A DNA stretch of 63,987 bases, counting the filler, from Folioceros fuciformis (taxonomy: Eukaryota), in assembly GCA_049999805.1 (NCBI GenBank). It is 7 parts of 7 records of this genome, joined end to end, with 100 filler letters (N's around TTAATTAATTAA, not from the genome) between each part and the next. Parts side by side here need not be neighbours in the genome. Positions count along the whole stretch, not along the records: positions 22,372 to 43,777 come from JBNGIO010005327.1; 6 more parts are not named here. One strand, 5' to 3'. How positions within the stretch are numbered: position 1 is the first letter of the stretch; each line of letters opens with the position of its first letter. A model generated the notes under the pieces. That model saw only the letters and a program-made list of their open reading frames with translations. It was not told the origin of the DNA and made no database searches. The translations under genes and the position numbers were made by a program. Positions 1,683-42,428 of the stretch are shown piece by piece.

Positions 1683-1694
1683 GCTCTGATACCA
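1683..1694 (-). promoter_or_regulatory. Primer-binding site complementary to initiator tRNA-Met (TGGTATCAGAGC)
   Basis: Plus strand reads gctctgatacca, the canonical plant LTR-retrotransposon PBS, upstream of the minus-strand gag. Confidence 0.9.
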
Positions 1695-1966
1695 TAACAA
1701 ATTTGTGGTCTAGGATCGAATTACATGCACATCATTAGTAGAAAAGACAAGATTAAGATTAGGCGTGGCCAAAAGTGGCCTTAAGCCAAGAGAGAGAGTG
1801 CGTGCACCGGTTCGGTGGTGGCTGTTGGTTAGGGTTGCGACCCTTATGAAAAGCTATGACTCTATGAAACGCTCCCAGCGTTTCATACCCCGACTTTCGC
1901 CCTAATAAATAAATAATTAAGTCTGGCTATTAAATGTTAAACCTAACTATTCACGCATTTTCCACA
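1695..1966 (-). repeat. Probable 5' LTR of copia element A (TGTGG...TGTTA on the minus strand)
   Basis: Abuts the PBS. There is a candidate TG start at 1966 and a TA rather than CA end. No second copy in the window, so the outer boundary is tentative. Confidence 0.5.
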
Positions 1967-1996
1967 AAAATTAGAATCCCGCCTAAACCACCAGCC

Positions 1997-4900
1997 ATGG
2001 CTCAGACAACAGTGAACAACTTTCCTACGTTTGAGTTTAGGAAGAAAGACAGGTTTGCGGGTAAAGATTTTGAGATATGGTCGGCAAGGGTGAAGTCAAT
2101 TCTCTTGGACAAAGAGTTGTGGGGAAATGTTTCTGGGCAAGTTGTCACGCTAGTTCCAGTAAATGTTGGAGCACCAACAGCAGCAGAAACAATGGCCATT
2201 CAGAACTGGGAAAAGGATGATCGTAAAGCAAGGGCATTGCTAATGCAGAGTCTCGCCACTGAGACTATGCATCATATGCGAAAGAAGCTTGGGATCAAAT
2301 CCAAGACTCATATGCTGCAAAGGATACCCTAGCACTAGTATTGGCCACTCAACATTTCTATCAGCTACGAATGCTGGACCAAGACACAGTTGAGAAGCAT
2401 ATAACTCAGTTCAGAATCAATCGCTCCAGACTTGCAACTCTAGGAACGATCGTAAATGATGAACACGCTGGTGTGATTCTGCTAGCCTCTCTACCCACAT
2501 CTTGGTCAGCATTCGTAACTTCTCAGCAAGGCCGTGCAAATTTGACAGTGGCGATGGTCATCTCTGCTATGTATCAACACGAAAACACCAAGCGGATGGC
2601 ATCCTCTTCCCAAAATCAGGGTGATGGAGGAGTGTTGTTCGCACAGGGACGTTTTCAGAGGTCAGGGAAGCCCTGGCAGAACAAAGATCAAGGAAGTCAG
2701 GGGTTTCACAATACAAACCGAAAAAATGGTAAATGCTCCTACTGCAAGAAACCGGGGCACTTCTGGAAGGAGTGCAGGAAAAAGAAATTCGATGACCAAA
2801 AACGTGGGATCTCGTCGTCAAAAGGTACTAGCTCACAACTTGCTCCCCTGGGTGCTTTATTGCGACCTGTAATATAGCAACAAAGTTTGATAGCTCCTGT
2901 TGGTTCCTTGATTCCGGAGCTTCTCACCATTTTTGTTATGACGTTCACATTCTCAAGAATTTCACAAAGTATCATTGCCCAAGGAGAGTAGCCCTAGGGG
3001 ATGACAGGGTCTGCCCTATAATAGGTGAAGGGACAGTTGAGTTACAGCTGGCTTCAGGGGGACTGCTCTCCCTGCATCCAGTGTTATTTGTCCCAGCTTT
3101 AACCAAGAATCTACTCTCGACAATAGCGTTGGGTCAGCTAAAGCTGTACCGCATAGTGATGGAAGATGATGTGACGTTTATAACATTGAAAGTAGCACCA
3201 GATAAGGTGCTTATGACTGGACAGCCTGAAAAGGGCTTAAAACTCCTGGATGCAAGAGCTATTAATCAGAAGCAGCTGAAAGCGAAAGTTACAAGTATGG
3301 ACACCACACAGTTATGGCATCAACGACTCGGTCATCCATCTTTTCGCAAGCTGAAGCAACTTGTAACAAGAGAATTCGTAACAGGAATACCACAGTTTCC
3401 TGTGAATACTCAATGTTTTTGTGAGCCCTGTATTTTAGGAAAACAGGAGCGTCAGCCACACTCTAGAAGTTCAACTAGAGCTGGAGAACTATTAGCATTA
3501 GTCCATACAGACGTATGCGGGCCAATGGAAAATGCATCGTGCAGAGGGAGTCGTTATTTCGTCACATTTATAGACAATCTAAGCCATTTTACATGTATTT
3601 ATTTCATGCACAAGAGGTCAGAAGTATTTTTGAAGTTTAAGGATTACATCAGCTATGCTCAGAGACATACCTCAAAACAGTTGAAGGTTCTGCGGTCTGA
3701 TAACGGAGGGGAATACTCTTCATCCGAATTTGATCAGTTCTGCAGGAGGTATGGCATCCAACGGCATTTCTCTGTGGCATACACACCACAGCAAAACGGG
3801 ATAGCTGAGAAGCGAAATAAGGACCTCAACAACTCAGCAAGATGCATGTTGCAAGCTACAAAGCTTCCTAAGATGTATTGGGCAGAAGCAGTATCTATAG
3901 CAACACACGTACAGAACAGGCTGCCCACAAAGAAACTCATAGAACTAACACTCTTTGAGGCATGGACAAGACGCAAGCCAGATCTTAGGTATCTGAAGGT
4001 GTTTGGGTGCGTGGCGTATGCACATGTGCCTGCAGAGAGACGCCAAAAATGGGATCCGAAGGGAAGAAGACTCATGTTTGTTGGTTATGCCGATGGAATT
4101 CAGGGGCACAAGTTGATTGATCCCATTGTCAGAAAGGTCACATATGCCCGAAATGTGATCTTCAAAGAGGATTCAATGTGGTCAGCATTAAGAGGGAGCA
4201 ATGATCAACTAGAGCTGGGGAAGGATAAAGACGTATCTACTTATCCTGAAGAGGTTGAGACAACCATACCCTCATTCCCAACTAGCCAGCCAGACACCTT
4301 CTCTCCCAGAAGGCACCTACCACCACCATCAGCAGCTGCAAATCCTCCCGATCCAGGTGGTGGTGCCGATTCAAGTGAAGGTGATTTATTATCACCACGA
4401 GAAAATCAATAGCAACTAGACAATCAACAGCAATTAGATGATGTTCCAGCACCTACTACACCAGTTGAGCCAAGTTCTCCGCAACATGAGAATCAACCCA
4501 GACGTTCACAGCGGATCAGACAGCCACGTTATGGAAGGAGCCACCTCTCACCTATGACCATGCCCGCCAGTTGGCATTTGAAACAAGAGAAGCAGTTGAT
4601 GAAGCTCAGAGAGGTAGTGATCCGCAAAGTTATGATGAGGCATTATCAGGCTCCAATTCAGCAGGCTGGAAAGAAGCTATAAAGAAAGAGCTTGACTCGT
4701 TGTTGAAAAACGAGACGTGGGAGCTGGTGCCATTACCCTTAGGGAGGAAGCCGATTAATACAAAGTGGGTGTTTAAGACAAAATACNNNNNNNNNNNNNN
4801 NNNNNNNNNNNNNNNNNNNNNNNNNNNNNNNNNNNNNNNNNNNNNNNNNNNNNNNNNNNNNNNNNNNNNNNNNNNNNNNNNNNNNNAGGTGAGGACTATC

Positions 4901-6243
4901 TAGAAACGTTTTCACCAGTGGTTCGATTAGGCTCAGTTCGACATTTGATAGCTCTGGCTGCACAAGAAGACCTAGACATCCATCAAATGGATGTTCAGAG
5001 TGCGTTTCTGCATGGCACTATAGAGGAAAAAATATATATGGAACTTCCTCAAGGATATGATCCAGGACTGGGAAATGAGCATTTAGTCTGCAAGTTAAAG
5101 AAGGCTTTGTATGGTTTGAAACAAAGCCCTAATAAATGGTTTGAGTGTATCAGAGATTACCTGATTGCATGCAGATTTGAACAGAATCCGTCAGACACCA
5201 ATGTGTTTATCCTGCGAGACTCTCAGGGATTTGTACTACTTGCATTATATGTAGATGATACTATTTTAGTGTCAAATAGTCCAGATACGCTGCAGAAGGC
5301 CAAAGATATCTTGTCAACAAGGTTCTCCATGACAGATATGGGTGAACTTCATTCGTTTTTAGGGATGAGAATAACGAGAGATAGAACAGAAGGTACAATT
5401 ACCTTGTCCCAAGAGAAGTATGTGCAGCAAGTTTTGAGGAAGTTTCACATGGAATCTGCAAAGCCTATTGCTACACCAATGTCAACATCAGTAAGGTTAG
5501 TGCCAATGCCAGCACCTCTGTCAACGGAGGATATACAGCTCATGGAACGAATTCCATATAGAAATGCATGCGGATCGCTGCAGCACTTGCAAGTTTCGAC
5601 TCGTCCAGATATTAGTAAAGCTGTATCACAAGTATGCCAATGTTTTCAAGCATACGGGAATGAGCACTGGACTGCTGTGAAGAGAGTTCTGCGCTACCTT
5701 AAAGGCACAGCATCATATGGCTTGATCTATAAAGCAAACAGAAGTCCAGGACGCAATGTAGCTAAGTTACAACTCACAGCATATTCAGACAGTGATTGGG
5801 CTGGAGATTTGGAGAAGAGGCGTTCAACGGCTGGCTACGCAGTGGTTGCACCCTCAGCTGCAATTTCGTGGAGCAGCAAGCGCTTATAGACAATTTGTCT
5901 TTAATCTACAGAAGCTGAATATTCAGCGTGCACTGAAGCTGCAAAAGATGTAGTGTGCCATCGTTAGTTTGCGCAGGGGTTAGGGATGCAGTATGATCAA
6001 GCAACAAAGTTGCATTCAGACTTACAGTCCGCCATTGCCCTCAGCCAGAATCCGGTTTTCCATTCGAGAACGAAGCATGTGGAGCTGAGATTCCATTATA
6101 TACGTCAGCTGGTGGAAAGAGGCGATGTCGAATTACATTACATTCCAACAGAGGAGAATCCTGCAGACATCCTCACGAAGGCCTTGGCAAAAGCGAAACA
6201 TGAGAAGCATGTAGCGACACTCGGTTTGAAGAGTATTAATTAG
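1997..6243 (+). mobile_element. Degenerate Ty1/copia gag-pol (element B): gag, zinc knuckle, protease remnant, integrase, RT, RNase H
   Basis: Motifs CSYCKKPGHFWKEC, LWHQRLGH, HTDVCGP, LRSDNGGEY, TPQQNGIAE, HQMDVQSAFLHG, YGLKQSP, LYVDD, YSDSDWAGD and TKHVELRFHYIR occur in the copia order INT-RT-RH. Broken by stops and frameshifts (about 2330, 2875, 4410, 5887) and an N gap. Confidence 0.95.
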
Positions 6244-6303
6244 AGTGAATTCGTAGTAATCAAAGATTATTTTATCTAACCTAACGGCTAGAAACTGAGG
6301 GAG

Positions 6304-6493
6304 TGTAAGAAACCCGTAAGAAACCCCCAGGTATTTAATGAACGGGTTTAGTTTCGTCGCTCGTTAGGAGCAGAGTTAGTTACTTTCATAGGATTCAGTT
6401 GATAACTGAATAACTGATAAATCGCATGTATTTAAGAAACATAAGCCTGAATAAAGTGTGTGAGTATTCGTGCAAGCTCCGCCTTTGCTCACA
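6304..6493 (+). repeat. Probable 3' LTR of element B, preceded by a polypurine tract
   Basis: GAGGGAG at 6297-6303 is followed directly by TGTAAG. AATAAA lies at about 6450 and a candidate ...CTCACA end at 6493. Confidence 0.6.
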
Positions 6494-7139
6494 TGGCAGG
6501 CAGAGAACCTTCAGGTACCCCAGCAGGAGGGGGAGCAGGCAACCCGAGGTAGCCCAAGGGAGGACGGGGTAAGCACCTCTGTTATGACAGAAGGTCGGAT
6601 TGTGCTGCAGTATGAGAAGGAGGCCTCCTATGTGCCAGACCTGTATGTAGAAGGGGCCAGAGTTCTGAAGCTGTTTCTGTATGTTTGTATCGGCACAGGA
6701 GGGACGCGGGGCTACGTCCTACAACTGAGGACGCGCCTGGGACTTTACCACTACAGATGGTGGGTGACAGGGCTGCCCCACTGTTATGCAGAGGCAGTTC
6801 TGGAGGAACTGACGGAAGAGGAGGCCTAGCGCTGGTAGAACGGGAGCCTGTGGCTGTCCTCAGCAACCAGAGAAGGAGGAGGGGTGGTGGACCACAGCGG
6901 CGGGACCCACCTGCGCCGCCAGCTAGGCCCAGCAGTAGCAGCAGTGATGTGGAGATCCTCTGGAAGGATCTGCCGGACCAACGGAGAGGCAGAAGAGCGA
7001 GAGGAGGAGCAGCGAGGGGTGACGTGCGAAGGCCAGGAGGAAGCCGCCAGCGGTGTGGGACATGGCGATAGTAAATGCAGGCTAGATTAGGTTTTTTTTT
7101 TGTGCTTTATTTGGACCGAAGTCGCTCAGAATTTAAGAG

Positions 7140-7593
7140 CGCACCTCCCCTGCCTGACAGACTTTATGGCGGAAAAACCGCCATCACCGTGTACAAGAGG
7201 CTGGTTTGAAGGCCTAAGAAATGAGCAAGAACCAGCCGGACAGTCAACCCTGCAGGGACCTAGCGATGGCCGTTGCTGGACGGGAGGTCCAGGCAAGCGA
7301 GCGCACGTAGCAACTTGGGGTGCGGGTGTAGGTGGTGGGCGCTCCGTGATCAAGTCCGGGGACGAATCGGGAGGAGGCGCCTCGCCGAGTGGGAGAGAAG
7401 CTCCCCAGCTATCCTCGAAGTGGTCACGTGGTTGGTGTGGGTGACGGAGCCGAATCCACGAGTTCGGAGTGGAAGGGATTCCTCTTCCCCTAGCTCTGGT
7501 ACCTCACCATTCCTCAACGTTCATAGGAGCCCAGGAGGGGCATTGCTGAGAAAGAAGACGAAAGAACCGGAGAAAGAGGAAGCGCGAGGGTGC
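7140..7593 (+). repeat. Dispersed repeat of about 450 bp with an inverted second copy at about 55196-55649
   Basis: Near-identical sequence, and the same peptides appear in the ORF track (CWTGGPGKRAHVATWGAGVGGGRS; PCLTDFMAEK). Confidence 0.9.
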
Positions 7594-7637
7594 NNNNNNN
7601 NNNNNNNNNNNNNNNNNNNNNNNNNNNNNNNNNNNNN

Positions 7638-7649
7638 TTAATTAATTAA
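7638..7649. other. Artificial scaffold linker N44-TTAATTAATTAA-N44; also at 11889-11900, 22316-22327, 43822-43833, 58667-58678 and 62127-62138
   Basis: The identical 12-mer gives stops in all six frames and is centred in 100-bp N blocks six times. Confidence 0.97.
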
Positions 7650-7693
7650 NNNNNNNNNNNNNNNNNNNNNNNNNNNNNNNNNNNNNNNNNNNN

Positions 7694-10600
7694 ATCGAGT
7701 TCTCTTTTCGAATAGAGGCTCAAAAAGGCAGCCACCACGATAGGGATCACAGAACCAGAATGCTGGTGGCAGTGGGAGTTTCAAGCGCCGCCCAACATCA
7801 TCTGCTAACAAGAAAAAGGGCTCTTGCAACTGGTGCCTGATCCCAGGCCATTGGGAGGCGGAGTGTAGGAAAAAGAAGGCGGGTGAGCCTCGCCGTACAG
7901 TTCCACCTGAAGCCAACATGGCATCTAGAAAGCCTAGCACAGTTCTAGCAGTATATATGGTGTCCACACCACAATACAAACATGCATGGTACCTCGATTC
8001 AGGTGCGTCGTCACATATTTGCCATACTAGATCAGCATTCTCTGAGTACAGAAAGGTCCCAAATGGTCAGGTTGTGCTCCTTGGTGACGACCGAGGTTTG
8101 CCAATTAAAGGAATAGGCAAAGTTCCTGTCCAAACCACAACTGGTAGAGTTGAAATCTTGCTAGAGGTTCTGCATGTACCAACCTTGGTCAAGAATTTGG
8201 TGTCAGTTTACCTGTTAGATGTACAGCATAAATTGAGCACCATGTGTGAAAATGGTCAGTGCCATATTGTTGACCAGGCAAACAAGTCAGAAGTTTTTGC
8301 AATTGGGACACCAGAACACAATCTGTACAAGCTGGATATTCAGTATGGGCATGGGAGACTATTGGCGAACCTGACACAGGCACAGAAGGATGAGCAGGAT
8401 GCCAGGCTGTGGCATGCGCGATTGGGACATACTAACTTTGACAAATTGAATATGATGGTCAACAGTGAAACACTTTACCGGGAAAGGTTCTTGATGAAGC
8501 CTGCGGAGAAGCCTTTCTGCGAGGCGTGCGTGTTTGGCAAACACCACCGAGCTCCATACAAAGACAGTAATCCAACACGTGCTACCAAGCTCTTGGAGCT
8601 AGTACACTCAGATATATGTGGACCTATGTCCACAATGTCACTTGGTGGAGCCAGATATTTTCTGTCATTCATAGATGACTAGAGCCGATACACGGTAGTG
8701 TATCCCATCAAACAGAAGGGTCAAACTCTGGATTGTTTCATGGAGTTTGTTATGTTTGCACAGAGACAAACAGGTCAGCTGCTGAAAGTCTTGAGAAGTG
8801 ATAACGGAGGCGAGTACATCTCAGATGCCTTCACCAGCTTTTGCAAGAGACAAGGCATAGCCAGACAGCTGACGACTCCATACACGTCAACACAAAATCC
8901 CATAGCTGAAATTTCCAATCGGCATACACAGGAATCAGCAAAAGCAATGCTCCAGCAAGCACGACTTCCGAGAGGATACTGGGCTGAAGCAGTATGTACG
9001 GCAGTGTACATTAGGAACAGGGTTCCTACCAGTGTGTTCACAGGAGCAACTCCATATGAGCGCTGGACAAACCATAAGCCGAGAATCAATCATCTCAGAA
9101 TATTTGGTGCAACAGCATATGCTCATCTGTCTGAGGATCAGCGAGTCAAGCTCGACTACAAGGCACGCAAGTACGTGTTTGTAGGCTACACGGAAGGAAT
9201 CAAGGGGTACAAATTGATGGACCCGCTCACCAGAGGCATAACTCATTGCCGGAGTGTGGTATTCGACGAGTTGTCTCTGCTCGTACCTCAACCTGAGCTT
9301 CCAGAGCGGATCCCTACACAGATTGCATCCACAAGTGAGGCATCAGAAAGAGAAAGTAGTGAGGAGACCTTCCAGCACACAAGTACTACAACTCAGTACG
9401 CACACGTACGTGCAGTTGCAATCAACCAACCTGCAAGTATTTTTCCGGATGACGATGATGGAGAAGCTTCTAATGACACCCAAGCTGAGATAGTTGCTGG
9501 TAATCCAAATGAGGAGGATACAGGTGACAACCATACTGGCAGCCATGAGGAGGCTGTCGATACACAAACTGAACAGGGTTTTTCATCTGAAGTAGAGGTG
9601 GAATCAGCTCCAGAAGCTGTGGGTCCAAGACGAAGCAGCAGGAAGCACACTGCCTCACCCTACGAATGGGTAACACCACCTCTCTCATACAGTTCGTTTC
9701 TGGTGCAGGATTATAGTGCACCAGATAATCTGTATGAGCCACAGTCATACAAAGAAGCAGTCAGCGGTCCAGAAGCTGCAAAGTGGGCTGCTGCAATTGA
9801 ATCAGAGTACCAGTCTCTGATTGATAATAGGACGTGGGAACTGGTGGACTTACCTGCTGGCAGGAAACCTGTAACCTGCAAGTGGGTATTTAAAAAGAAG
9901 CTTGCTGCTGATGGCAGTATAGCGCGGTTTAAGGCTCGACTTGTGGCAAGAGGGTATAGCCAGGTGGAGGGCCTGGATTATACAGAAACCTTTTCACCTG
10001 TAGTCAGGGCAACCTCTGTTCGCACATTATTAGCAATTGCAGCACAAAGAGATTACGCCATGGAACACATGGACGTGAAGACTGCTTTCTTAAATGGAAC
10101 CCTGGAAGAAACGATTTTCATGAATCAGCCAGAAGGTTTTGTAGACACCAAGCAGCCAGGAAAGGTATGCAGGCTCATTAAGACAATCTACGGACTAAAA
10201 CAGTCCCCACGAGCCTGNNNNNNNNNNNNNNNNNNNNNNNNNNNNNNNNNNNNNNNNNNNNNNNNNNNNNNNNNNNNNNNNNNNNNNNNNNNNNNNNNNN
10301 NNNNNNNNNNNNNNNNNGATGCTGTCCTCATTGCCAGCAGCCCAAAGATTGTGGCCAAGGTCAAATCTATACTCACCTCTGAGTTTTCCATGACTGACTT
10401 GGGGAAGCTCACATGGTTCCTCGGCATAGAAATCTTGCAAGACATGGAACAGCACACAGTCTTCATACATCAGGCTCAGTACATCAACCAGGTGTTAGCT
10501 CGATACAGGATGTCTGATTGCAAACCTGCTGCAACGCCGATGGCCATTGGTGATAAGCTGAGTGTTGAGCAGGCACCTAAAACAGAGACAGAGAGGCAGC

Positions 10601-11301
10601 AAATGGAAAATATTCCATACAGGTCAGCTGTATGCTCACTAATTTACTGCAGAAATTGGACGAGACCTGACTTGTCCTACGCAGTGGGAGTAACCTCTCA
10701 GTTCTTAACATGTTATGGACCAGCACATTGGGCAGTTGTACAGAGGGTGATGAGATACCTGAAGGGCACGCCGAGACTTGGCCTGATGTACAGACAACGA
10801 CCAAAAGATCTGCTGCTGACATGTTTCTGCGACGCAGATTGGGCAGCAGATGCCGACACACGCAGGTCCATTTCTGCTAATTGCTTGCTACTGGGAGCCC
10901 ATGAATACGACTCCACTGTGATTTCTTGGCATTCCAAGAAACAGCAAGTGGTTGCGCTATCGTCTACAGAGGCAGAGTACGCTGCTACAGCTACTGCTGC
11001 CCAAGATATAGTCTACGCAAGGGAACTGCTCTCCTCACTAGGTGAAACCCAGACTTCACCCACACTTCTACTATGTGACAACCACTCTGCTATCGCATTA
11101 GCACAAAATCCTATCATGCATGCCAGAACTAAACATATAGAAGTGAAGCATCACTTCATTAGACAGGTGCTAATAAATGGGCAGGCAACCCTACAATATG
11201 TGCCTACAACCGACAATGTTTCAGACCTGCTAACCAAAGCCCTAGCTAAGGATAAACATGACAAATTCTGTAGGGCTCTGGGCCTGGCAGTAAGTAAGTA
11301 G
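7694..11301 (+). mobile_element. Ty1/copia gag-pol (element C), nearly intact, with an in-frame stop at 8680-8682
   Basis: Zinc knuckle CNWCLIPGHWEAEC, protease WYLDSGASSHIC, LWHARLGH, HSDICGP, LRSDNGGEY, RFKARLVARGYSQ, HMDVKTAFLNG, CDADWAAD and TKHIEVKHHFIR. Confidence 0.96.
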
Positions 11302-14968: not shown

Positions 14969-17175
14969 TTAGTGCCGGCGGGTGACCCTGCGCTCATTTG
15001 GATTCCTTCTGCCGCTGAGAATGGCGAAAGTGTTTCTCAGGCTCGGTACTTGCCGTATATTGGACTTGCTACTCTTGGAGAACAAATCATCAGAATTGCA
15101 AGATTCCAATCCCTGCAAAAAACATGGACCGCTTAGAATTCGATGCATATACAAAATCTATCACCGCATAGCCATAATTTCCATCATAGCATCATAGAGC
15201 TTCACCTCGCTTAATGAAACTTTCTTGACCTTGGGCTTCATGAGCCTTTGAGGAAGCTGATCCTCACACAAAACAGGGTTTTGCAGAGCTCCCTCTCGTC
15301 CTCCCTTCGGTAGAGGCAAGGAAAACTGTGAAGGGACAACACATGTTAGTTTCCGTACTAATCACACAATGACAACCCTCAAACCTCATCGGCAACCAAC
15401 ATGCGTCTGCATGCCCTCAACTTACTCTAGTGCCTCGTATATTGACACGACGGGGCTTTCCTGAAAGAAGCATTCCATCTTCCCCCAACGTAACAGACGT
15501 CTTGTGTAAGGTCCCTCCATTCCCACATTTTGGACAGAACAATCGACCAGTGGCGGGTGTCACATGGCTACAAGCTTGGCACTTGAGTACCCATCTGCAT
15601 GAGCAATTATTCAATAAGCAAGCTCACCGGTCGAATAGCAATGGATAGGGGTTCGCTAAGCATCTATTAGTTCCGTTCTTGTCAAACGGAAGAAATCTTA
15701 CCTGTGGAGTTCACGCACTTGCAAGCCACCAGCAGAGAGAAGTCGCAAGCCCATCTGTAGAAGGACATTCTGAATGGCAAAATCTGCGGTCATACAAGCA
15801 ATGCTTGACCTAAAATGCGACTCCTCAGTGACGGTTTGCACGCTATCGTTGTCATCGCCAAGGTTGGACGCCGTCCCATCCTGGATTCTAGGTTCAAATC
15901 CAAGAACTTGGGAATCCAGTAACTGTCTACCATTTGCTTTCTCCTCCTCATCAAGAACCTGGTCTGTAGTTCCACCAGAAGAAGCATCAGCACCTTGACG
16001 CACAACCTGCCTCACGGCATCTCCAGGCCGTATCTCACTATCCTCCTCTTCCTCGAGGTCAATCATTTCCGGAAGATCTTCATCACCCTCCTCATAATCA
16101 TTAACTACAGCCGATTCAAAGAAAGTTGTGCCATTTGAAGGCTTTTCAGACTCGTCCGCAGCACTGGCACCCTGAGCACCTGACTGTGACAACGCCTGAT
16201 CCCTAGCTGCAGCTTTCGCTGCTCTCCTCAAATGTTTTCTCCTTGTGCTCCTGCTGCATGCCTTCTGCCACCCCCCAGAGTCATCCTCCCCCGTATTCGC
16301 ATCCCGCCCAGGCCAAACATTTCGTTTTCCTTCCAAATCAAGGGCTGCTGTGGAGCTNNNNNNNNNNNNNNNNNNNNNNNNNNNNNNNNNNNNNNNNNNN
16401 NNNNNNNNNNNNNNNNNNNNNNNNNNNNNNNNNNNNNNNNNNNNNNNNNNNNNNNNNCCTCAGGTCCATCATCCTGCCTTTCATCCAATTTTTCCTCACC
16501 AAGACTTTCCATAGCAAGACCAGAATCCAACGCCCTAACCGTTGCAGCATCAACCACAGCTGCTGACGCTCCTACCTCACCATCCTCCCACAAACTCAGA
16601 TCCTGCACCCCTAAAATTCGCGACCTGCCCCGATCATCCGCTACCTTATCAATCTCCTCCCACTCCTCAGGGTTGGAAACATTGTTGCCCCAGCCAGGAG
16701 GATCCTTAACCCTCAGCCTGGCGGCTGGGACCACCTTCAAAGGCGGAGGTGTCGTCCGCAGATGCGAGCTACCGTGGGCCTGAACTTCCAATGTGTAAGT
16801 CAGGGCCAACAATCTCAAGTCCACAGTCGACAGACTCTGCAGGTCCCCAGTGGCGCGTGCAAACTGCGCCACCTTCGTCAGTGCGTCCTGCGAGGGCTCA
16901 ACCGTGTGCAGCTTGAAAGGCAGAGTAGCCAGCTGCGCTCTGGCAGCGGAGTCTCGAATCTCTTTCAGGACCTCGGGCACCGTCACGAACTGATCCGCCA
17001 CTCCTGGCAGAGTGTAAACCACATTGCTGTTGATGAGCAGGCCTGTGTCCAGCACAACCGTGCTCAGCCCGGCCTTGGAGCCCGCCGATGCCAAGAGGTC
17101 AAATGGCGGCGTGGGCTTTGCATCCAGCCGCGCCACTGCAGCCCACGCCTGGGGCGCAGATTTTTCAGCCGCCAT
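14969..17175 (-). CDS. NOB1: 20S pre-rRNA D-site endonuclease NOB1 (PIN domain plus zinc ribbon), spliced, with an N gap in exon 1
   Basis: Motifs VVLDTG...TVPEVLKEIRD, FARATGDLQSLSTVDL, ACMTADFAIQNVLLQMGL, CQAC...FCPKCGNGGTL, FSLPLPKGGR and C-terminal SGRRNPNE. Confidence 0.95.
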
Positions 17176-17814
17176 GGACTCTTCTGATTCCTCCCCAAGG
17201 TTTCCCTAGCTCGAGTCAAACGGGCTTGAATAGAACTCCAAGCAAACAAGTCCTTCAATGTGCCTAATGCACCCTAGGACGCACATATATATATATGAGT
17301 ACAGTCGGCTCTCCCTAAATGGGAACCTTCCCATTTAGGGGATTCCCTAGAAGTTTGTAAGTAGTACGGTAATTTTTCTCGCTTTCTTTTTCAGCCTCGC
17401 CTCTTTCTTCTTTTTTGGGCTGGGAACCCTTTTAGAAAGTTTTTCCCATGTGAAGTTTGTTTTGGGCTGGGAAATCTTTTTAGAAAGTTTGTCTACAAAT
17501 GTTTGGATGAGTTACCGATACAAAGTATGGAATATCAATACGGTGAGGTGCCTTTCAACCAAACTTTACTTCAATAGTAGGGCACAAAGTAGGTGTCTTG
17601 GGACATCTACTATGTGCCTTATTTTATCTCTCACGTTCAGATCCATCTCTCTCCATTCACAATCATTCAATTTTTTTTAGTTAGGATTTAGCATCCACAA
17701 TTCAGCATCCATCCTCAAGACCTCAGCGTTCACTATGTTATATGTTGTGTACACATTTGTCACCTCCATGCATACCCCTAACCGTCTGAGTTTTGCCACT
17801 CCAATCTAGAATCA

Positions 17815-23064: not shown

Positions 23065-24106
23065 GCTACTGGTAGCCGCTTCGGCTACTTGCTGTCGCCA
23101 CGTCACAGCATCCCTATTTTCCAGCCTAAGTCCACAAGTACCTACTCCCAGGCCCCNNNNNNNNNNNNNNNNNNNNNNNNNNNNNNNNNNNNNNNNNNNN
23201 NNNNNNNNNNNNNNNNNNNNNNNNNNNNNNNNNNNNNNNNNNNNNNNNNNNNNNNNACCCCCCTGTCCGCCAAAGGCCAAGGACGTCCAGCCACCCCCAG
23301 ACACTTGGTCTGGCCACTGATTCGCCCAAAGTACCTTGGTTCAAGGAGACCTTGGGTATAAATATCCCTGTCTTATTCACAAGCTAAGCCGTTTCACTCG
23401 CACTTCCACAAAAAAAATCAAAATCCACCAAATATGTCACTCAAAAAGGGGTTCGCGAATATGTTTTCCCTCTACAATATGCTATGCCTTCCTTCACGTC
23501 TCTTGNNNNNNNNNNNNNNNNNNNNNNNNNNNNNNNNNNNNNNNNNNNNNNNNNNNNNNNNNNNNNNNNNNNNNNNNNNNNNNNNNNNNNNNNNNNNNNN
23601 NNNNNATAGTCTGAGTACAGTCATGTCCCGACCGTGTGTTTGCAATTCTGGCAACTCTTTTGCAGCAATTGATCGACCCACGTCTCCATGACGCAAGGCT
23701 GTGGGTGCATGGCAGGGTGGCGGACAGTGGTGGGGGAATTTCCGGCGGTTGCAACCGCTCAATTAGCCTGTCCACAAGCAAACTTCTTTATTCTTTATTC
23801 AGGGTTGTCGTAATAGGGATTCTATAAAGTGGAGGCGGATCTATGTGGCGCCGACCTCTACTCTGCTCTGCTCTGCTCGGCTGTACTCATGGCATCACGA
23901 ACTACATATACAACTGCTCTTTCCTTTGAAAGAGAGCTGTTGGCGGAATGAAGGGGGAAAAAAAAAAAAAACAAAAAAATCTGAACTGAATGCAGGCTAG
24001 CATATAAGATTTCTCTGGAGGACAGTGCTTTGGCCTTCCGTGAGTGTTGCGTGACCATCGAAGGTGGTGTTACCGCAGCCTTCCTCCCCCCCCTGTGACA
24101 GAGGTT

Positions 24107-26527
24107 TCATCTCTGCTGCGTGCCACTGGCGTCACTTTCAGAACAGCAGAAAGCAGGCGGGATCTGCCCACAGACATAGTTCGTGAACAGCTTGTTCACG
24201 TCGAAGCCATTGAAGCAGCTCCCCGCTGACTTGGTGTAGGCACCCATTCTGGGAAATATCAGCCAGTCGCCACACTGCAACTGTGGCAGCCACACATTTC
24301 TCATGACAGTGTCCAAGCCATCACAGGTTGGACCGAAGACGGTGGACTGATAGAGCTGCTCATCCTCCCAGCACGAGTCGGTATCTGCGTCTTGTTGTGA
24401 ACGGAGGGGAAGAGACCGCACAGACAAGACTGCGTGGTCGTACACCAAACAATTCATGGATCCGTAGACACCGTCATTGATCCAGTACTCTGGAGTCTTG
24501 ATCCCTCCCTTCACCCGCACCCTGCTCCCGAAAATATGCGTGGCCAGAGTGAAGGCTTCTTCGGCAAAGAAGCGGCCGGGCTCTGCGATGACGGACACGC
24601 CCATAAAGTGAGGAAAGTGCCTGTCCAGAGCCTGATTGATTGCTGCAGCAGCCGCGTTGAAGCTGACACCGATGCCTCCATCCGAAACGAAGCCACCACC
24701 AATGTCGAGCACTTTGAGAGGAGGCATCCCCAAGTCTCCAGCGGCGTCGAACACCCGTCTTGCAGACTGGATTCCATCCGCAAACGAGCTAGCCTCCGAT
24801 GCACCGCTACCCACGTGGAACGCAACACCCACTACCGTGTTGCTAGCCACGTCAACTCCTGCACCCAGGCTGACTAGCAAGGACATAAGGCAAGGGTCCT
24901 GGTTGCACTTGACAGCATAGAAAGGCTGCACTCTGGGCAAGGCAGCCTGCCACTCCGACCACAGCCTCAAAACCACCGCAATATCAAGCACGTAGAAGGC
25001 ATCCTCCGCTGCCGAAGCCAAGACCTTCTTCCGGATGTACGAGTCCACATCAGAGGAGGAGTTGAGCATGCACGGGTTCACTGCAGACAAGAGCGTGCTC
25101 AGACGAGGAGGACGCTGCAGGCCGTGCACATGACTGTCCTGGTGCTGGACCATCTTCACACAGAGAGTCTCGTTACCACGATGACTGGTGGTATCCAGCT
25201 TCATAGCCTTGGCCTGCGCGCTCGAGGAATCGGTACCGGTGTTGGCTCCCACCACTTGCCCAAACAGGGGCAGCGGACACACAGCAGAGCTCCATAGGCC
25301 GGCAATCTTGTAAGTGTGGAAGATGATTGCACTGTTGCTCCTCAGCTCCTGCCTACTCGTGGACTCACATGCATAGCCCTGAGGACAAATGGGCTGGTTC
25401 CACGAACAGCTCGCCATATCCTGGGTGGTGCCCCCGGTGACAAAGAGGGCGACAGAGAATTCCTGTGGCTTGAAGACAGCCACAGCCTTAGCTACAAGGC
25501 TGTGCAAGTCCGTGGTGTTGGGGCCGTAGCCCATAGCCTCGTATGAGGCATAAGACCATCCCTCCTCAGGTGAGATGTGTATGGTTGAGTGCGCTCCTGG
25601 ACCCGAGCCAGCATGGGCACTGAAACTTTCCATCGCATTCATGCTATACCCCACAGGATCAAAAGCGAAGTCACAGATTGCAGCCCGTGGGTTGATATCC
25701 GCAATCCCCGACGCCCGGCTCATCTCGGCTGCCGTGGGATACACGGACTTTTGGAACTGCTCGGCGCAGCGCCTGTCGAGGTTGGTCATACAGCACTCCA
25801 AGGTGTAGACAGAGTCAGGTTGGCTGGCGGGAGGAGGTCCTGGATGAGGAGCGGAGACGTGGTCATCAAGGTGAGGTCGCGGCTGAGCCTGTGCGCAGTA
25901 GACATGCCAGTTGTGAGGCTTGCATGGATCTCCCATGACATAGGCCTGCCCCCCTGCACCCAGCCCCCCGAAGCACTTGTCCAGGAACGTCACCTCCTCC
26001 GCAAAACTTGTATGCGGAAACGGCTGCACCTCGGGGAAGAGGTAGGTGCCGCGAGTGTACTTGACCCGGTAAGTCTTCAATCCCAGGCGAGCTGCGTGGG
26101 CCAGCAGCAGCGGAATGGCCCGCAGCAGCTGCGTCGTCCCGCAGGTCTTGATCACCAGCCTGTGCGGGTAGACGAAGAGGGAACTTTCGCTGAGCACATA
26201 GCTGTCCACCCAGGTGGTGCTCAGGCCCGTGACAATTGTGCATTCCGCCGCTTTGAGCAGCTTGTTCAAATCGTCCCGGGAGAGCGCCCGCAGCCCCAGC
26301 CCTTGGGGATCGGAGAAGAGAGGGGCCGGAAGGAATTCCACCTCCAGCCTCTTTTCGAAGCCTTCGAAGCCTGGAAGCGGCGGGGGGGGCGGGGCCGGGG
26401 ATGGCGCTTCCGCTGGCGCTGTTGCTCGTCCTCCTCGGTCCGTTGCGTCTGCTGCTGCTCCCGCCGCCACCATACCCGCCGCCGTGCGCGTGTCATCGGG
26501 AGCTTCCGGCACAAAAGACACCCCCAT
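24107..26527 (-). CDS. SAMDC-ODC: S-adenosylmethionine decarboxylase fused to an internally deleted ornithine-decarboxylase-like domain, 806 aa, intronless
   Basis: SAMDC half: GFEGFEKRLE, YVLSESSLFV (self-cleavage site E114/S115), KTCGTT, GYSMN, TIHISPE, SYASYE. ODC half: FYVLD, PFYAVKCN (K540), FHVGSG, LDIGGGF, AEPGRFFAE, INDGVYGS, FGPTCDGLD (C735), MGAYT. Start context is gccgccATGG, and there are no Ns or stops in the ORF. Confidence 0.95.
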   Translation of the reverse strand: MGVSFVPEAPDDTRTAAGMVAAGAAADATDRGGRATAPAEAPSPAPPPPPLPGFEGFEKRLEVEFLPAPLFSDPQGLGLRALSRDDLNKLLKAAECTIVTGLSTTWVDSYVLSESSLFVYPHRLVIKTCGTTQLLRAIPLLLAHAARLGLKTYRVKYTRGTYLFPEVQPFPHTSFAEEVTFLDKCFGGLGAGGQAYVMGDPCKPHNWHVYCAQAQPRPHLDDHVSAPHPGPPPASQPDSVYTLECCMTNLDRRCAEQFQKSVYPTAAEMSRASGIADINPRAAICDFAFDPVGYSMNAMESFSAHAGSGPGAHSTIHISPEEGWSYASYEAMGYGPNTTDLHSLVAKAVAVFKPQEFSVALFVTGGTTQDMASCSWNQPICPQGYACESTSRQELRSNSAIIFHTYKIAGLWSSAVCPLPLFGQVVGANTGTDSSSAQAKAMKLDTTSHRGNETLCVKMVQHQDSHVHGLQRPPRLSTLLSAVNPCMLNSSSDVDSYIRKKVLASAAEDAFYVLDIAVVLRLWSEWQAALPRVQPFYAVKCNQDPCLMSLLVSLGAGVDVASNTVVGVAFHVGSGASEASSFADGIQSARRVFDAAGDLGMPPLKVLDIGGGFVSDGGIGVSFNAAAAAINQALDRHFPHFMGVSVIAEPGRFFAEEAFTLATHIFGSRVRVKGGIKTPEYWINDGVYGSMNCLVYDHAVLSVRSLPLRSQQDADTDSCWEDEQLYQSTVFGPTCDGLDTVMRNVWLPQLQCGDWLIFPRMGAYTKSAGSCFNGFDVNKLFTNYVCGQIPPAFCCSESDASGTQQR

Positions 26528-26647
26528 GGCGGCGGAGACCTATCCCTGCTACTCACACCAGTACCAACAACAACAACCCGGGAGTGTGGAGGCTGCCGGG
26601 CACCACCTAGACTGTAACACTAACTCCGGGGCCCTTCTTCAGCTCAA

Positions 26648-26683
<36 letters not shown>
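26648..26683 (+). repeat. (GACA)n microsatellite
   Basis: Read directly. Confidence 0.9.
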
Positions 26684-26783
26684 GAGACACAAAACGATGA
26701 CGGAATCCGGGGTTGTGCGGAGCGAGGATGGGACGAGGCCGCTTCCCAGGCAATGGAATTCAAGGAGCCGTCAGGTATAATAC

Positions 26784-26990
26784 GGCGAGGCGAGNNNNNN
26801 NNNNNNNNNNNNNNNNNNNNNNNNNNNNNNNNNNNNNNNNNNNNNNNNNNNNNNNNNNNNNNNNNNNNNNNNNNNNNNNNNNNNNNNNNNNNNNGGCGAG
26901 GCGAGGCGAGGCGAGGCCAGGCGAGGCGAGGCGAGGCGAGGCAAGGCAAGGCAAGGCAAGGCAAGGCAAGGCAAGGCAAGGCAAGGCAAG
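26784..26990 (+). repeat. Compound pentanucleotide microsatellite (GGCGA)n(GGCAA)n spanning an N gap, in the SAMDC-ODC 5' leader
   Basis: Read directly. Confidence 0.9.
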
Positions 26991-27068: not shown

Positions 27069-27356
27069 TCAGGATGGCTTCCTCACGCACTGCGCACAAA
27101 AACAAACACGAGGGAACAAGTGTTAGAAGAGCGTTGCTTCCTTCCATGAGACAGCATGGCCGTGGAGTGAAAAGCTTTGGTCGCGATCTGGAGAGCGAAT
27201 CCCGCTCTGAAACTCCTCCTCCTCCCTCACCTTGCTGTAGGCTGCAGTCCGGAACTTGTCGACTCCCCCGTTGGGACGGACGTCCTCCGCGACGTAGCCA
27301 AGAGGAGTCTCGAATTGGCGCTTGCGTCCACGATTACCGCCTCTGCTCTCCCCCAT
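27069..27356 (-). CDS. Conserved SAMDC small uORF, 48 aa, two exons (27356-27231 and 27089-27069)
   Basis: Spliced product is MGESRGGNRGRKRQFETPLGYVAEDVRPNGGVDKFRTAAYSKCVRKPS*, using donor AAG/GTGAGG and acceptor TTTGTGCGCAG/. It matches the plant SAMDC leader peptide pattern EAPLGYxIEDVRPNGGIxKF...YSNCxxKPS. Confidence 0.95.
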
Positions 27357-27364
27357 TAGAACAT
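27356..27364 (-). promoter_or_regulatory. SAMDC tiny uORF (ATG TTC TAA) overlapping the small-uORF start by one base
   Basis: Minus strand reads ATGTTCTAATGGGG, the TAATG overlap typical of plant SAMDC leaders. Confidence 0.9.
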
Positions 27365-38218: not shown

Positions 38219-39932
38219 TCGGCCGCCTGCAGAACTGCCGTCCGTTACGGAAACGCTTCCAAATTGAGTTCAGGATCTGCCTCCAACGAATCCTCCTTGC
38301 CTGGCAAGCATCACCATGCGTGTAAGGCCATCAGAGACCGCCAACGAGTGCATTCCACACACTCCTGGAGAAGAGAATGGTCTGTCGCGTCTTACACACG
38401 ACTCCGAAACTTGCGCCTGTTGCCACTCCCAGACTCCAACATAGCACGCTCATGAACTCTGCTACCGGTGTCACAGGTGCAGGAGGCTGGTCGGGGACAG
38501 CGTCACATGGCATAAACCTAATGCAGCATCCATCGTCCCTATGTAGTGTGCAGCACCCACAATTATTCCACTAGGGTTTCGCAAATTTAGTGTGCATTTC
38601 CGCCAATACCTCACTTGCAGGAGCTAATCTACTCCACACCAAGGAGCCAAAGCATGGAAGTTGTGCAGATCAACCACACAGCATGTGACTCAGCGGAGTC
38701 CGTGCAAAAGCAGCAAGTCAAATTCATCAACTCGACCATTGGTGAGTTTGCTTGTCTGAGGAAGCTTTACGGTTCGTTCTGAAAGGGAAGAATTGCGCTT
38801 TCCGCTAATCTTTGCTCTCCTCCAGCACAAATTTTTGGTGTCTGTTAAGAATATCTTGGGTGGATGGTGCCCCCTTGACCACTGTGATTGGATTCACCAC
38901 TGCCTGAGCAAGATCACAAACAATTTGAGCATGGAGAACGTTTTATCCATCAGCTGTTGGCTGCTGTCCCTACTATTTTAGACAGGGTGTGGTTAGTTCA
39001 CCAATGAACTGTGTGTCACCACAAAAGGTGTCAATTACCCTGGCAAGCTACTTAGGTCCTCAAGATGCTCAGGACAAGAATCATGCCATGTGATGTGGGA
39101 GGGGCTGTGTCGCAGATATCTTTGTTGCTGATCTCTATGTCCTGGTGTTCAATCACACAGTTGGAGTAGGGCCGTCTGGCTCTGCACAGTTGTATTTAAG
39201 TTTATTCTGAGGGTTACCGGATTCTGAAGCTCTTGACGAAGCCATGCCTCGTGTCCCCTTGGTTGCCAGACCTGTTTATTGGAGGAAAGATCTCCCGCAG
39301 CTGGTAGATATCACAATGACGCAGGCCCTTGAAAGTTTCACTTTCTTCTGCTTTTTGACCATCTGCTCTGGGTTCTGTCCTCCCTGAGCATCATATGCTC
39401 GTTCCTCAGTTGGGGTGGAAAACGACAGACATGCACTGTGACATCAGGCACACGAAGACTTTGAGCTCGGCCTGCACAGAGGAGATTCTCTCGTTACTGT
39501 TCTTGAAATCTATCTTCGCACTTTGTTCTTGACTGCAGGCAGCAGCACAGTGGAGCGAACGTCACGGGAGGGCAGCCGGTAATGTTGAATATCGTATGGC
39601 GGTGTAGATTGGCGAATGGCAACGCCAAGGCTTAGATGCAAACGACGACGCTGAGACTCCAGCACACGCTTGGAGTGTGAGAGGTTACAGGTTAAGCTAT
39701 TCAACATCCCATCGTCTCTCAAACCGTGTACCCAATTTGTTGTAATAAGCAAATGTTTTCGTGAAGACGAAATTGTTGGTGATTTGAATGACCAAAAGGC
39801 TGGTTGGTAGTGACAATATCCCTGTGCTGAGTTTGGGAGCAAGGTGGTGATGGCGCTGCGTCGTGTCATGCAAATCCATCATCAATTCTGCTCGTAGCCC
39901 TTGTCGCCTTCTTGTGGCCCACAGGGCCCGCG

Positions 39933-42428
39933 ATGGCTGCCATGGCGGGCGTCGCATTTGAATTACGGCAGGGGCAGCAGGACACATTTTGGGGACAGCT
40001 TTCTGGGGCTCAGAAAAGTGGGGGGTTAGCGGTTCTTCGAGGACGAAGTCCTGCTTGTCTAGTGAACAAACAGTCGGCAAACAACGACGGCGCGAGCTGC
40101 AGCAGCTTTCGGCATGGGCTGTCCCGAAAGATTGTGTACAAGCCGTTTCGGGTGGATGCTCAGCTTGCTGCTCCGGCGACGGGTATGGGGATGGGTCGTC
40201 GGGGCTCCGAATCCAACTCCAGCTTTCTGAATGAATCTGACCTCGGCAGGACTGCAGGATGCCAAAGGGCCGTAACTGGTGAAATCGTGAGCAAGCTGTG
40301 TGATCAGGGCCATCTGAGTGAGGCTGTGGAGGCTTTGGGAGTCCTTGTCCAGATAGACTGCGGCATTGCGAAATCTCTCTTCTATACTGTTCTCAAGAAG
40401 TGCGCAGTCAAGAAGGATCTTGTTCTGGGTCGCCGCGTTCATGCATTCACGGTGTTTAAGGGTCATCAGTCAGACACGTTCCTGGGCAACCATATTCTGA
40501 GAATGTATACTTCTCATGGCAGGTTGCAAGAGGCGATGGATGTGTTCACCATGGTCCCGAAACCAGATAATTTCATGTGGTCTTCCATAATGTCTGCATA
40601 TGTTCAAAACGGACTAGACAAGGAGGCCGTAGAACTTTATCATCGGATACGCAGGTCAGGCCTGAAGCCAGATGGCCATGTGTTCGTTGCGGCCCTTCAG
40701 GCTTGCGCAAGGGGAGCAGACCTGAAAACTGGGCAAGAACTGCATGCTGATGTGGTGGCTAGTGGGGTGGAGCCGGATTTGTTTGTCTGTAATTGCTTGG
40801 TGGACATGTATGCAAAGTGTGGCAGCTTGGAAGACGCTCAGCGAGTGTTTGACGGACTGAGTAAGAAAGACGTGGTGACGTGGACTGCTATGATAGCAGG
40901 ACATTCGCAGCAGGGCTTGGGCCGGGAAGCCCTTAGTCTCTACAGTGCAATGCAAGATGAAGGCATCGCTGTACCCAATGCCGTGACATTTGTGTGCCTC
41001 CTCCAGGCCTGTGCGAGTGTGGGCACCCCAGCTTTGGAACAGGGGAAGCAGCTTCACGTGCAGATCAGGAAAAGTGGACATGAAGCTGATGCGTTTGTGG
41101 CTAGCGGTTTGGTGAATATGTATGCAAAGTGCGGCAGCCTAGAGGACGCTGAGAGTGTGTTCGAGGGACTCCTTTACAAAAACGTGGTGACATGGACTGC
41201 TATGATAGCAGGGTATTCCCAGCAGGGCAAGGGTCAAGAAGCCCTTCGTCTTCATAGTGCTATGCAACAAGAAGGCATGGCTGTACCGGACTCGGTCACA
41301 TTCGTGTGTCTTCTTCAGGCTTGTGCAAACGTGGGCCCCACTGCATTGGAGAAGGGCAAGCAGCTTCATGCACAACTCAGAGAGGAGGGGCATGAGGCTG
41401 ACGTGTTTGTAGCCAGCAGTTTGGTGAATATGTATGCAAAGTGTGGCAGCTTAGAGGATGCCCACAGAGTGTTTGATGGACTTGGGCAGAAAGATGTGGG
41501 GACATGGAATGCAATGATAGCAGGATACTCCCAGCAGGGCATGGACCAGGAAGCCCTTGGTCTTTACTCAGTTATGCAAGAACATGGCAAGACTGTGCCC
41601 AATATGGTGACATTTGTGTGCCTCCTCCAGGCATGTGCAAATGTGGCAGCGCTGCATGTGGGAAAGCAGCTACACTCACAGATTGAGGAACACGGGCTTC
41701 TTTCTGATGTTTGTGTGGCCCGTAGTCTGATTAACATGTATGGCAAGTGCGGGAGTATGGTTGATGCGCAGCAGGTGTTTGACGACATGCCTGAGAGAGA
41801 TGTGGTCGCCTGGAGCTCACTGATTGCAGGCTATACTTGTCAAGGGAACAGTGATGTGGTCTTCGTCTTGGTCCAGAGGATGAGAGAGGACGGCGTACAG
41901 CCCGACGCCATTACGTTCCTACATTTACTCACGGTATGCAATCATGCGGGTTTGGTAGACAAGGGGAGAGAGTACTTCGAGTCTATGAGCAGACAGTATC
42001 GCATTACTCCCACAGTGGAGCATTACACATGCATGGTGGATCTGTTGGGCCGAGCAGGCGAAATGGATGAGGCACTGTCTCTGGTAAGGGCAATGCCTGT
42101 ATTGCCTAATGCTGTGGTTTGGCACAACCTGTTAGGTGCTTGTCGAAAGTGGAGCAACGTAGAGGTAGGACGACGGGCCTTCGATGAAGCCGTGAAGCTA
42201 GATGAGAAAGATGCCGCCGCCTATGTGATGATGTCAAACATATACACAGATGCCCAAATGTGGGAGGAGGCACAGGAGATGCAGGCCAGGAGGATGAGAA
42301 AGGGTGCGTGGAAGGATCCAGGTCAGAGCTGGTGGATCGACATGGATGGATTGACTCATGCTTTCTTGGTGGGAGATCAGAAGGAGCCAAAGTGTCAAAG
42401 CAAGGTCGACACATCGCAATACGATTGA
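39933..42428 (+). CDS. PLS-class PPR protein (organellar RNA-editing factor type) with E1/E2 and a truncated DYW:WW-like start
   Basis: Intronless ORF with a transit-peptide-like N-terminus, repeated P-L-S triplets, HYTCMVDLLGRAG, VWHNLLGACR and AYVMMSNIY. These are followed by KDPGQSWWIDMDGLTHAFLVGD and a stop. Confidence 0.93.
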   Translation: MAAMAGVAFELRQGQQDTFWGQLSGAQKSGGLAVLRGRSPACLVNKQSANNDGASCSSFRHGLSRKIVYKPFRVDAQLAAPATGMGMGRRGSESNSSFLNESDLGRTAGCQRAVTGEIVSKLCDQGHLSEAVEALGVLVQIDCGIAKSLFYTVLKKCAVKKDLVLGRRVHAFTVFKGHQSDTFLGNHILRMYTSHGRLQEAMDVFTMVPKPDNFMWSSIMSAYVQNGLDKEAVELYHRIRRSGLKPDGHVFVAALQACARGADLKTGQELHADVVASGVEPDLFVCNCLVDMYAKCGSLEDAQRVFDGLSKKDVVTWTAMIAGHSQQGLGREALSLYSAMQDEGIAVPNAVTFVCLLQACASVGTPALEQGKQLHVQIRKSGHEADAFVASGLVNMYAKCGSLEDAESVFEGLLYKNVVTWTAMIAGYSQQGKGQEALRLHSAMQQEGMAVPDSVTFVCLLQACANVGPTALEKGKQLHAQLREEGHEADVFVASSLVNMYAKCGSLEDAHRVFDGLGQKDVGTWNAMIAGYSQQGMDQEALGLYSVMQEHGKTVPNMVTFVCLLQACANVAALHVGKQLHSQIEEHGLLSDVCVARSLINMYGKCGSMVDAQQVFDDMPERDVVAWSSLIAGYTCQGNSDVVFVLVQRMREDGVQPDAITFLHLLTVCNHAGLVDKGREYFESMSRQYRITPTVEHYTCMVDLLGRAGEMDEALSLVRAMPVLPNAVVWHNLLGACRKWSNVEVGRRAFDEAVKLDEKDAAAYVMMSNIYTDAQMWEEAQEMQARRMRKGAWKDPGQSWWIDMDGLTHAFLVGDQKEPKCQSKVDTSQYD

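Follow-up and report, generated by a model that had tools for sequence, protein, structure and literature searches.

A SAMDC–ODC Fusion Gene With an In-Frame Deletion in Its ODC Half

Analysis of a 63,987-nucleotide stretch of DNA from Folioceros fuciformis (GenBank assembly GCA_049999805.1), in which seven parts of seven records are joined end to end (in the following, the window), revealed a fusion gene on the minus strand at 24107..26527. Its single open reading frame (ORF) encodes S-adenosylmethionine decarboxylase (SAMDC, or AdoMetDC), a linker and a shortened module related to ornithine decarboxylase (ODC), and is preceded by the pair of upstream ORFs (uORFs) known from plant SAMDC genes. 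SAMDC and ODC are the rate-limiting decarboxylases of polyamine metabolism. Judged by its sequence, the gene is an orthologue of an ancient SAMDC–ODC fusion of the green lineage and did not arise independently in its own lineage. The fusion architecture itself is already in databases; new here is an unusual internal deletion in the ODC half, which is supported by independent public contigs. We consider it likely that the gene encodes an active, uORF-controlled SAMDC bearing a catalytically disabled ODC module, derived from the old green fusion by a lineage-specific in-frame deletion. Such a deletion would leave SAMDC carrying a crippled ODC appendage, which may represent a recent step toward a stand-alone SAMDC or a module kept for a non-catalytic role. 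The gene and its leader comprise the following features (positions in the window):

24107..26527, minus strand: main ORF (SAMDC, linker and shortened ODC-like module), 806 codons plus a stop at 24107-24109, no N
26372..26527, minus strand: N-terminus (residues 1-52) with a low-complexity stretch rich in Ala, Gly and Pro, about 33 residues long; modelled as disordered
25307..26371, minus strand: SAMDC (pyruvoyl AdoMetDC) domain, residues 53-407; Pfam PF01536, E 5.4e-102
26183..26188, minus strand: putative self-cleavage codons E114-S115 in YVLSESS, aligned with E67/S68 of the human proenzyme (1msv)
25046..25306, minus strand: poorly conserved linker, residues 408-494, delimited by alignment; disordered in the model
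24839..25045, minus strand: ODC-like module part 1, residues 495-563, with the first two barrel strands, K540 (AVKCN) and D559
24834..24839, minus strand: junction codons T563 and V564, which flank an in-frame loss of about 96-98 residues
24170..24838, minus strand: ODC-like module part 2, residues 564-786, with FHVGSG, DIGGGF, EPGR and a C-terminal sheet domain with GPTCD and GAY
27231..27356, minus strand: first 42 codons of the small uORF (SAMDC leader peptide); Pfam AdoMetDC_leader PF08132, E 2.6e-15
27356..27364, minus strand: tiny uORF ATG TTC TAA, read from the sequence
26795..26894, no strand: 100-N assembly gap within the leader, separating the main ORF from the uORF exon

The preliminary description of this DNA had reported one N-free frame of 806 codons, a complete pyruvoyl-type SAMDC at about residues 50-408, a linker of about 80 residues and a fold-III ODC-like domain. 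The frame was found as described, residues 53-407 matched the SAM_decarbox profile of Pfam over its full length (positions 3-343 of 343), and the linker came to about 87 residues. For the ODC-like domain the description stood in part. Both Pfam families are present, namely Orn_Arg_deC_N (PF02784, E 5.1e-34, in two stretches) and Orn_DAP_Arg_deC (PF00278, E 9.6e-19), but the barrel is incomplete, and the absence of about a quarter of the ODC half had been overlooked.

The best stretch of the PF02784 match covered only profile positions 153-246, compared with 1-246, 2-246 or 3-246 in the four orthologues tested, and the score was 118 bits in two pieces versus about 250 bits in these orthologues. 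An alignment of the Folioceros protein to ten fusions and three stand-alone ODCs revealed a 98-column gap in it between ...GAGVDVASNT and VVGVAFHVGSG.... Relative to the ODC of Trypanosoma brucei (TbODC), residues 507-563 correspond to 36-93 and residues 564-786 to 190-409, and an equivalent of 94-189 is absent. Among 121 proteins examined, 116 matched in the ODC half, and of these the Folioceros protein alone has the gap. It takes in about 30 columns with at least 90% conservation in 55 fusions, including the ANPCK, TFD, LRIRADD and KYGA motifs of the orthologue consensus. The missing barrel segment was not found elsewhere in the window by tblastn with the Marchantia segment, which returned chance matches (best E 0.16).

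The shortening was also seen in the AlphaFold model of the fusion protein, which is alignment-driven. Five barrel strands were modelled, two in part 1 of the module (533-538 and 557-559) and three in part 2 (567-571, 606-610 and 645-648), instead of the eight of a complete barrel, and the target-normalised template modelling (TM) score of the ODC half against ODC structures was 0.59-0.66, compared with 0.89-0.91 for the SAMDC half against its own relatives. The C-terminal sheet domain is present, as indicated by the PF00278 match and by an alignment that extends to TbODC residue 409. The predicted local distance difference test (pLDDT) score fell below 50 for linker residues 426-471. We take TbODC 94-189 to span strands 3 to 5, and with them three out of eight strand-helix units, in the barrel that binds pyridoxal phosphate (PLP), and E94 and R154, both within the lost stretch, to be cofactor-contacting residues. 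As three strand-helix units of the barrel are gone, the module has very probably lost its ability to decarboxylate ornithine.

The stretch with the fusion gene was found in contigs of three public runs, X1 from a 2017 study and X2 and X3 from a 2025 study, the latter two from the same sample. The RNA label of X1 is a guess of the search tool, and no run holding the stretch is listed as RNA. Record 2 of X1 (2736 nt) covers 23986-26640 and bridges both the linker and the deletion junction with no differences, gaps or joints. The junction is bridged again by X3 record 11 (24757-24988), and the linker additionally by X2 record 6 and X3 record 12. The linker is crossed in three runs from two studies; the preliminary description had proposed to look for long reads or RNA-seq there. 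Contigs of X2 and X3 reach 23610, and those of X1 leave 23610-23796 and the region beyond about 26700 uncovered.

The SAMDC Half and Its Upstream Leader

The SAMDC half looks fully competent as far as its residues and predicted fold allow a judgment. Potato AdoMetDC (1mhm) matched it with E 1.3e-65, and in Foldseek the modelled half reached the TM scores given above against 1jl0, 1msv and 1mhm, the human and potato enzymes. pLDDT values exceeded 90 across most of the domain. In the alignment, human E8, E11, E67/S68, C82, S229 and H243 correspond to E55, E58, E114/S115, C129, S295 and H317, all of which are invariant across the 55 fusions. We assume the catalytic roles of C82, S229 and H243 from the human enzyme, and likewise take E67/S68 to be the self-cleavage site that gives the pyruvoyl group. 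The proenzyme, if it behaves like its family, would cleave itself at E114/S115 and so make its pyruvoyl cofactor, and the large chain would keep the C-terminal ODC-like module after cleavage. Two differences in length were observed: the SAMDC half carries a lineage-specific 17-residue insert relative to every aligned SAMDC, and another segment is 9 residues longer than in green orthologues and close in length to that of the human enzyme.

The main ORF is a single uninterrupted frame without introns. From stop to stop it extends over 24107..26539, and the ATG follows just four codons after the in-frame upstream stop, in the context gccgccATGG. The protein begins with MGVSF..., as do the Selaginella and Marchantia orthologues in the alignment. 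Its N-terminal Ala/Gly/Pro-rich stretch has no counterpart in the aligned land-plant orthologues, and residues 1-41 were modelled with pLDDT below 50.

Upstream of the main ORF, the dual-uORF arrangement of plant SAMDC genes was found, in agreement with the preliminary description. The tiny and the small uORF share one base, the last A of the tiny-uORF stop being the A of the small-uORF ATG (27356), and residues 3-42 of the small uORF match positions 2-45 of 51 of the PF08132 profile. Codon 42 is followed directly by GTGAGG, a candidate intron donor at 27230; unspliced, the small-uORF frame stays open to 27123. Splicing from this donor to the AG at 26644-26643 would yield a uORF of 53 codons, the candidate donor and acceptor being separated by the 100-N gap. 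At high polyamine levels the uORF pair would be expected to repress translation of the main ORF. PF08132 is annotated also on the fusion gene models of Chlorokybus (P0033) and Closterium (P0037).

The Fusion in the Green Lineage

In a search with the whole protein, 90 of the 120 matches listed carried PF01536, PF02784 and PF00278 together; the proteins covered by the family search ranged from 443 to 1411 amino acids (aa). Named sources of fusions among them are the liverworts Marchantia polymorpha, two Riccia species and Calypogeia fissa, the ferns Ceratopteris richardii (two genes) and two Adiantum species, as well as Selaginella moellendorffii, Klebsormidium nitens, two Closterium strains, Trebouxia, Micractinium, Myrmecia bisecta and Cymbomonas tetramitiformis. 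Judging by identifier prefixes, Mesotaenium, Spirogloea, Chlorokybus and a Nephroselmis probably contribute rows too. No seed plant or moss appeared among the named fusion rows of the 120 matches listed. For many of the fusion proteins the source is one transcript or one contig of about 3 kb, and it is therefore unlikely that the fusions of other species are artefacts of gene models.

Among the rows listed, stand-alone SAMDCs were found in mosses, lycophytes, ferns, gymnosperms and angiosperms. The named seed-plant rows are all stand-alone, in line with the separate genes that the preliminary description had stated for flowering plants. Its view that both halves are plant-type was borne out as well, since the nearest stand-alone relatives are plant SAMDCs and plant ODCs; the latter (Sphagnum, Ginkgo, Cryptomeria and angiosperms) are 42-55% identical in all but one listed row. 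The best BLAST identity to the Folioceros protein among the matches listed was 47%, and the exact protein is absent from a collection of 15 billion sequences. Its own lineage is therefore unsampled there, and no near relative that might date the deletion was found.

The fusion proteins are labelled variously as S-adenosylmethionine decarboxylase, ornithine decarboxylase-like or uncharacterised. Two of them, from Trebouxia (P0041) and Cymbomonas (P0050), are named "Mitochondrial 2-oxoadipate and 2-oxoglutarate transporter", which disagrees with their Pfam domains and is apparently a misannotation passed from record to record. No description of a plant or algal SAMDC–ODC fusion was found in the searchable literature, subscription-only reviews being outside its reach, and passages from PMC12803844, PMC11107197, PMC6934065, PMC11020214 and PMC6579911 do not mention a plant fusion. 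The green-lineage family thus appears to be annotated in databases yet uncharacterised.

A quick SAMDC tree of 64 rows, rooted on a chlorophyte outgroup of our choice, and a careful ODC tree of 65 rows, with opisthokont outgroup rows likewise chosen by us, were compared. SAMDC domains tracked the species tree, from chlorophyte fusions through Chlorokybus, Klebsormidium with Chara, and Zygnematophyceae to land plants. Fused and stand-alone SAMDCs were interleaved, with at least 8 state changes over the 64 rows, and a single clade of 28 stand-alone rows was rejected (approximately unbiased test, p-AU 8.7e-5), this group having been named post hoc and excluding two rows with an ODC remnant. The Folioceros SAMDC falls within the land-plant clade (support 96) and outside a group of liverworts plus mosses, its exact position in the quick tree being weak (90). 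In the careful tree all green ODCs formed one clade against the opisthokont outgroup, which two unnamed database rows joined, and the Folioceros ODC half was placed in a 16-row clade of land-plant fusions with support 100/99. In the quick tree, two Closterium fusions adjoin a Selaginella stand-alone SAMDC on a branch of 0.89, far from the other Zygnematophyceae, which is likely a long-branch artefact.

The shared architecture and the nesting of both halves among fusions identify the gene as an orthologue of the ancient fusion. Every one of the deepest branches of the SAMDC tree carries a fusion, and the tree is therefore more simply explained by repeated losses of the ODC half. Green algae and non-seed land plants appear commonly to encode both decarboxylases as one protein behind the SAMDC uORF switch, so that a single translational sensor could govern both polyamine steps. 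Loss or erosion of the ODC half likewise appears to have occurred several times, in mosses, in seed plants, in a liverwort paralogue and in the gene of the window.

Alternative Explanations

Several observations weigh against an active SAMDC with an ODC module disabled by a lineage-specific deletion. In the SAMDC half, codon 292 (25654-25656) encodes Val at the equivalent of human C226, a position that is Cys in at least 90% of the 55 fusions, and this half is the faster-evolving one, with an end branch of 0.53 compared with a median of 0.20 in the quick tree. In the ODC half, every recognised PLP or substrate residue outside the gap is retained: K540, D559, H571, G610-612, E649/R652, D685, C735/D736 and Y764 lie in columns that are invariant or nearly so, and we take their counterparts K69, D88, H197, GGG, E274/R277, D332, C360/D361 and Y389 to be the cofactor and substrate residues of ODC. 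The 270-odd retained residues are 64-67% identical to those of Marchantia, Riccia, Adiantum and Selaginella and show no decay; these four are 63-65% identical to one another, except for 81% between the two liverworts. The end branch of the ODC half (0.27) equals the median (0.27) in the careful tree. As to the deletion itself, X2 record 6 fits 24838-26241 and then continues with 28 unlike letters from the exact junction, no X2 contig bridges 24819-24837, and a second form of the locus, perhaps an allele or a rearranged copy, may be present in the sample of X2 and X3, unless the loose end is an artefact.

The absence of decay implies that the deletion is young or that the remainder is still under selection, and the data fit both equally. 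A truncated module selected for a non-catalytic job, such as dimerising or regulating SAMDC or binding a partner, overlaps with the explanation we prefer and differs from it in the purpose of the appendage. It could account for a retained part that is conserved like that of intact orthologues and evolves at the median rate, for the 243 codons that stay open after the junction, and for pLDDT values mostly of 86-97 in the remainder, a confidence that is alignment-driven. A young deletion predicts the same pattern of conservation, however; no other of the 116 ODC-half proteins has this truncated form, and a barrel minus three strand-helix units may fail to fold. Selection for such a job is conceivable but rather unlikely. 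An undecayed remainder would also be expected if the deletion were an assembly artefact, or confined to one allele or copy, with an intact bifunctional gene also present. The departure of X2 record 6 exactly at the junction, the missing bridge in X2 and the fragmentary assembly, in which the gene lies between two 100-N gaps (23506-23605 and 26795-26894), fit this possibility. Nevertheless, X1 record 2 and X3 record 11 come from studies published or run eight years apart and both cross the junction with no difference at all, and the deletion is in frame. Loose contig ends of 28-29 letters occur also at the unremarkable sites 24988 and 25936 and may be a feature of low-depth contigs; that the loose end in X2 coincides with the junction by chance is unlikely. 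Its 28 letters have no occurrence in the window at up to 3 mismatches, and as a missing exon they were rejected, their in-frame reading being unlike the ODC residues expected there. A hidden intron at the junction was also rejected, as the ORF is continuous and the contigs have no joint. On balance, an artefact or a single affected allele is improbable.

The intronless main ORF, the internal deletion and the copia elements elsewhere in the window would be compatible with a silent pseudogene or a retrocopy, but the 806-codon frame is open and all conserved SAMDC residues but one are kept. The gene moreover has its own uORF leader with an apparent intron donor, for which a retrocopied coding region would have no use, and main ORFs of plant SAMDC genes are intronless anyway, so that a silent copy is very unlikely. 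Least credible of all is a fusion formed independently in this plant's lineage from separate SAMDC and ODC genes, as the preliminary description had favoured. The plant-type halves and the separate genes of seed plants had made this plausible, but it is contradicted by the same architecture in green algae and land plants alike (90 of the 120 matches listed), by the position of both halves among fusions and by a uORF that accompanies the fusion in streptophyte algae too. Beyond the reading of an active SAMDC with a disabled appendage, a wider scenario can be drawn, which we put forward as doubtful speculation: the ancestral green lineage may have had one uORF-controlled SAMDC–ODC polypeptide, the stand-alone SAMDCs of mosses and seed plants may be what repeated losses left behind, and the Folioceros module may be a selected non-catalytic appendage. 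If so, polyamine metabolism would have a dead-enzyme regulator of a new type.

Comparison With Known Systems

The closest likeness is to the green fusions of Marchantia polymorpha (859 aa, P0003), Selaginella (LOC9650684, P0013) and Klebsormidium nitens (P0031), which have the same order and the same three Pfam families. Streptophyte fusions are 52-56% identical to the Folioceros protein over the alignment. They keep the full ODC barrel, whereas the Folioceros protein is without about 96-98 residues of it. The AdoMetDC/ODC of Plasmodium falciparum is also a single polypeptide, with an N-terminal AdoMetDC, a hinge and a C-terminal ODC, and its order is that of the gene in the window. The parasite protein is considerably longer, carries parasite-specific inserts and is not known to have a plant uORF leader.

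Seed-plant SAMDC genes resemble the gene of the window in their one-base-overlapping uORF pair, the PF08132 leader and the uninterrupted main ORF, which in plant SAMDC genes is intronless. The Folioceros SAMDC is 46-50% identical to most of the angiosperm rows listed. While seed-plant and moss SAMDCs stop after the domain (355-440 aa), the Folioceros frame continues into the ODC-like module.

Inactive relatives of both enzymes are known. Antizyme inhibitor, which has the ODC fold without ODC activity, was among the sequence matches (PDB 3btn and 4zgz, E 1e-44). It keeps the whole barrel and has lost PLP-binding residues; the Folioceros module shows the opposite, its residues being kept and part of the barrel gone. 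Both antizyme inhibitor and the AdoMetDC prozyme of trypanosomatids are dead paralogues with regulatory roles, and the Folioceros module would resemble antizyme inhibitor, as an ODC fold without ODC activity, if it were kept for a function. The preliminary description had pointed to degenerate AdoMetDC–ODC paralogues in some non-flowering plants. This was not verified in print, but a protein of Marchantia paleacea fits it: Mapa_009017 (P0086, 562 aa), like P0090, consists of a SAMDC followed by a decayed ODC remnant. In P0086 the remnant is 31% identical over 148 residues and has lost FHVGSG and DIGGGF. It is thus short and diverged, whereas the Folioceros module has a clean deletion in a well-conserved domain. 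The remnant of P0086 is independent of the Folioceros deletion and shows that the ODC half has been eroded on more than one occasion. Cut down and not yet decayed, the Folioceros ODC half offers a natural test of the role of the module in SAMDC stability, dimerisation and regulation.

Other Features of the Window

Simple repeats lie beside the fusion gene, with a T-rich run at 23945-23985 in the 3' region and (CTGT)n at 26641-26691 in the leader; repeats of the GCCTT/GCCTC type adjoin the 100-N gap at about 26895-26990. Because such repeats break contigs, the public contigs end at 23945-23985 and 26641-26691, and simple repeats are probably the cause of the assembly gaps as well.

The window is a land-plant nuclear region, in which copia-type ORFs, a pentatricopeptide repeat (PPR) protein and a PIN_6 ORF were also found. 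The ORFs of copia-type long terminal repeat retroelements extend over 3-11301, with gag at 3-833 on the minus strand and two sets of integrase and reverse-transcriptase frames at 2832-5889 and 7744-11301 on the plus strand. The PPR protein, at 39831-42428 on the plus strand, is encoded by an uninterrupted frame of 865 codons and carries an E motif (PPR_2, E 4e-78; E_motif, E 3e-13); we presume that it belongs to the class tied to organelle RNA editing in land plants. An ORF at 16228-17205 on the minus strand encodes a PIN_6 ribonuclease domain (E 4.5e-27) and is probably one exon of a gene.

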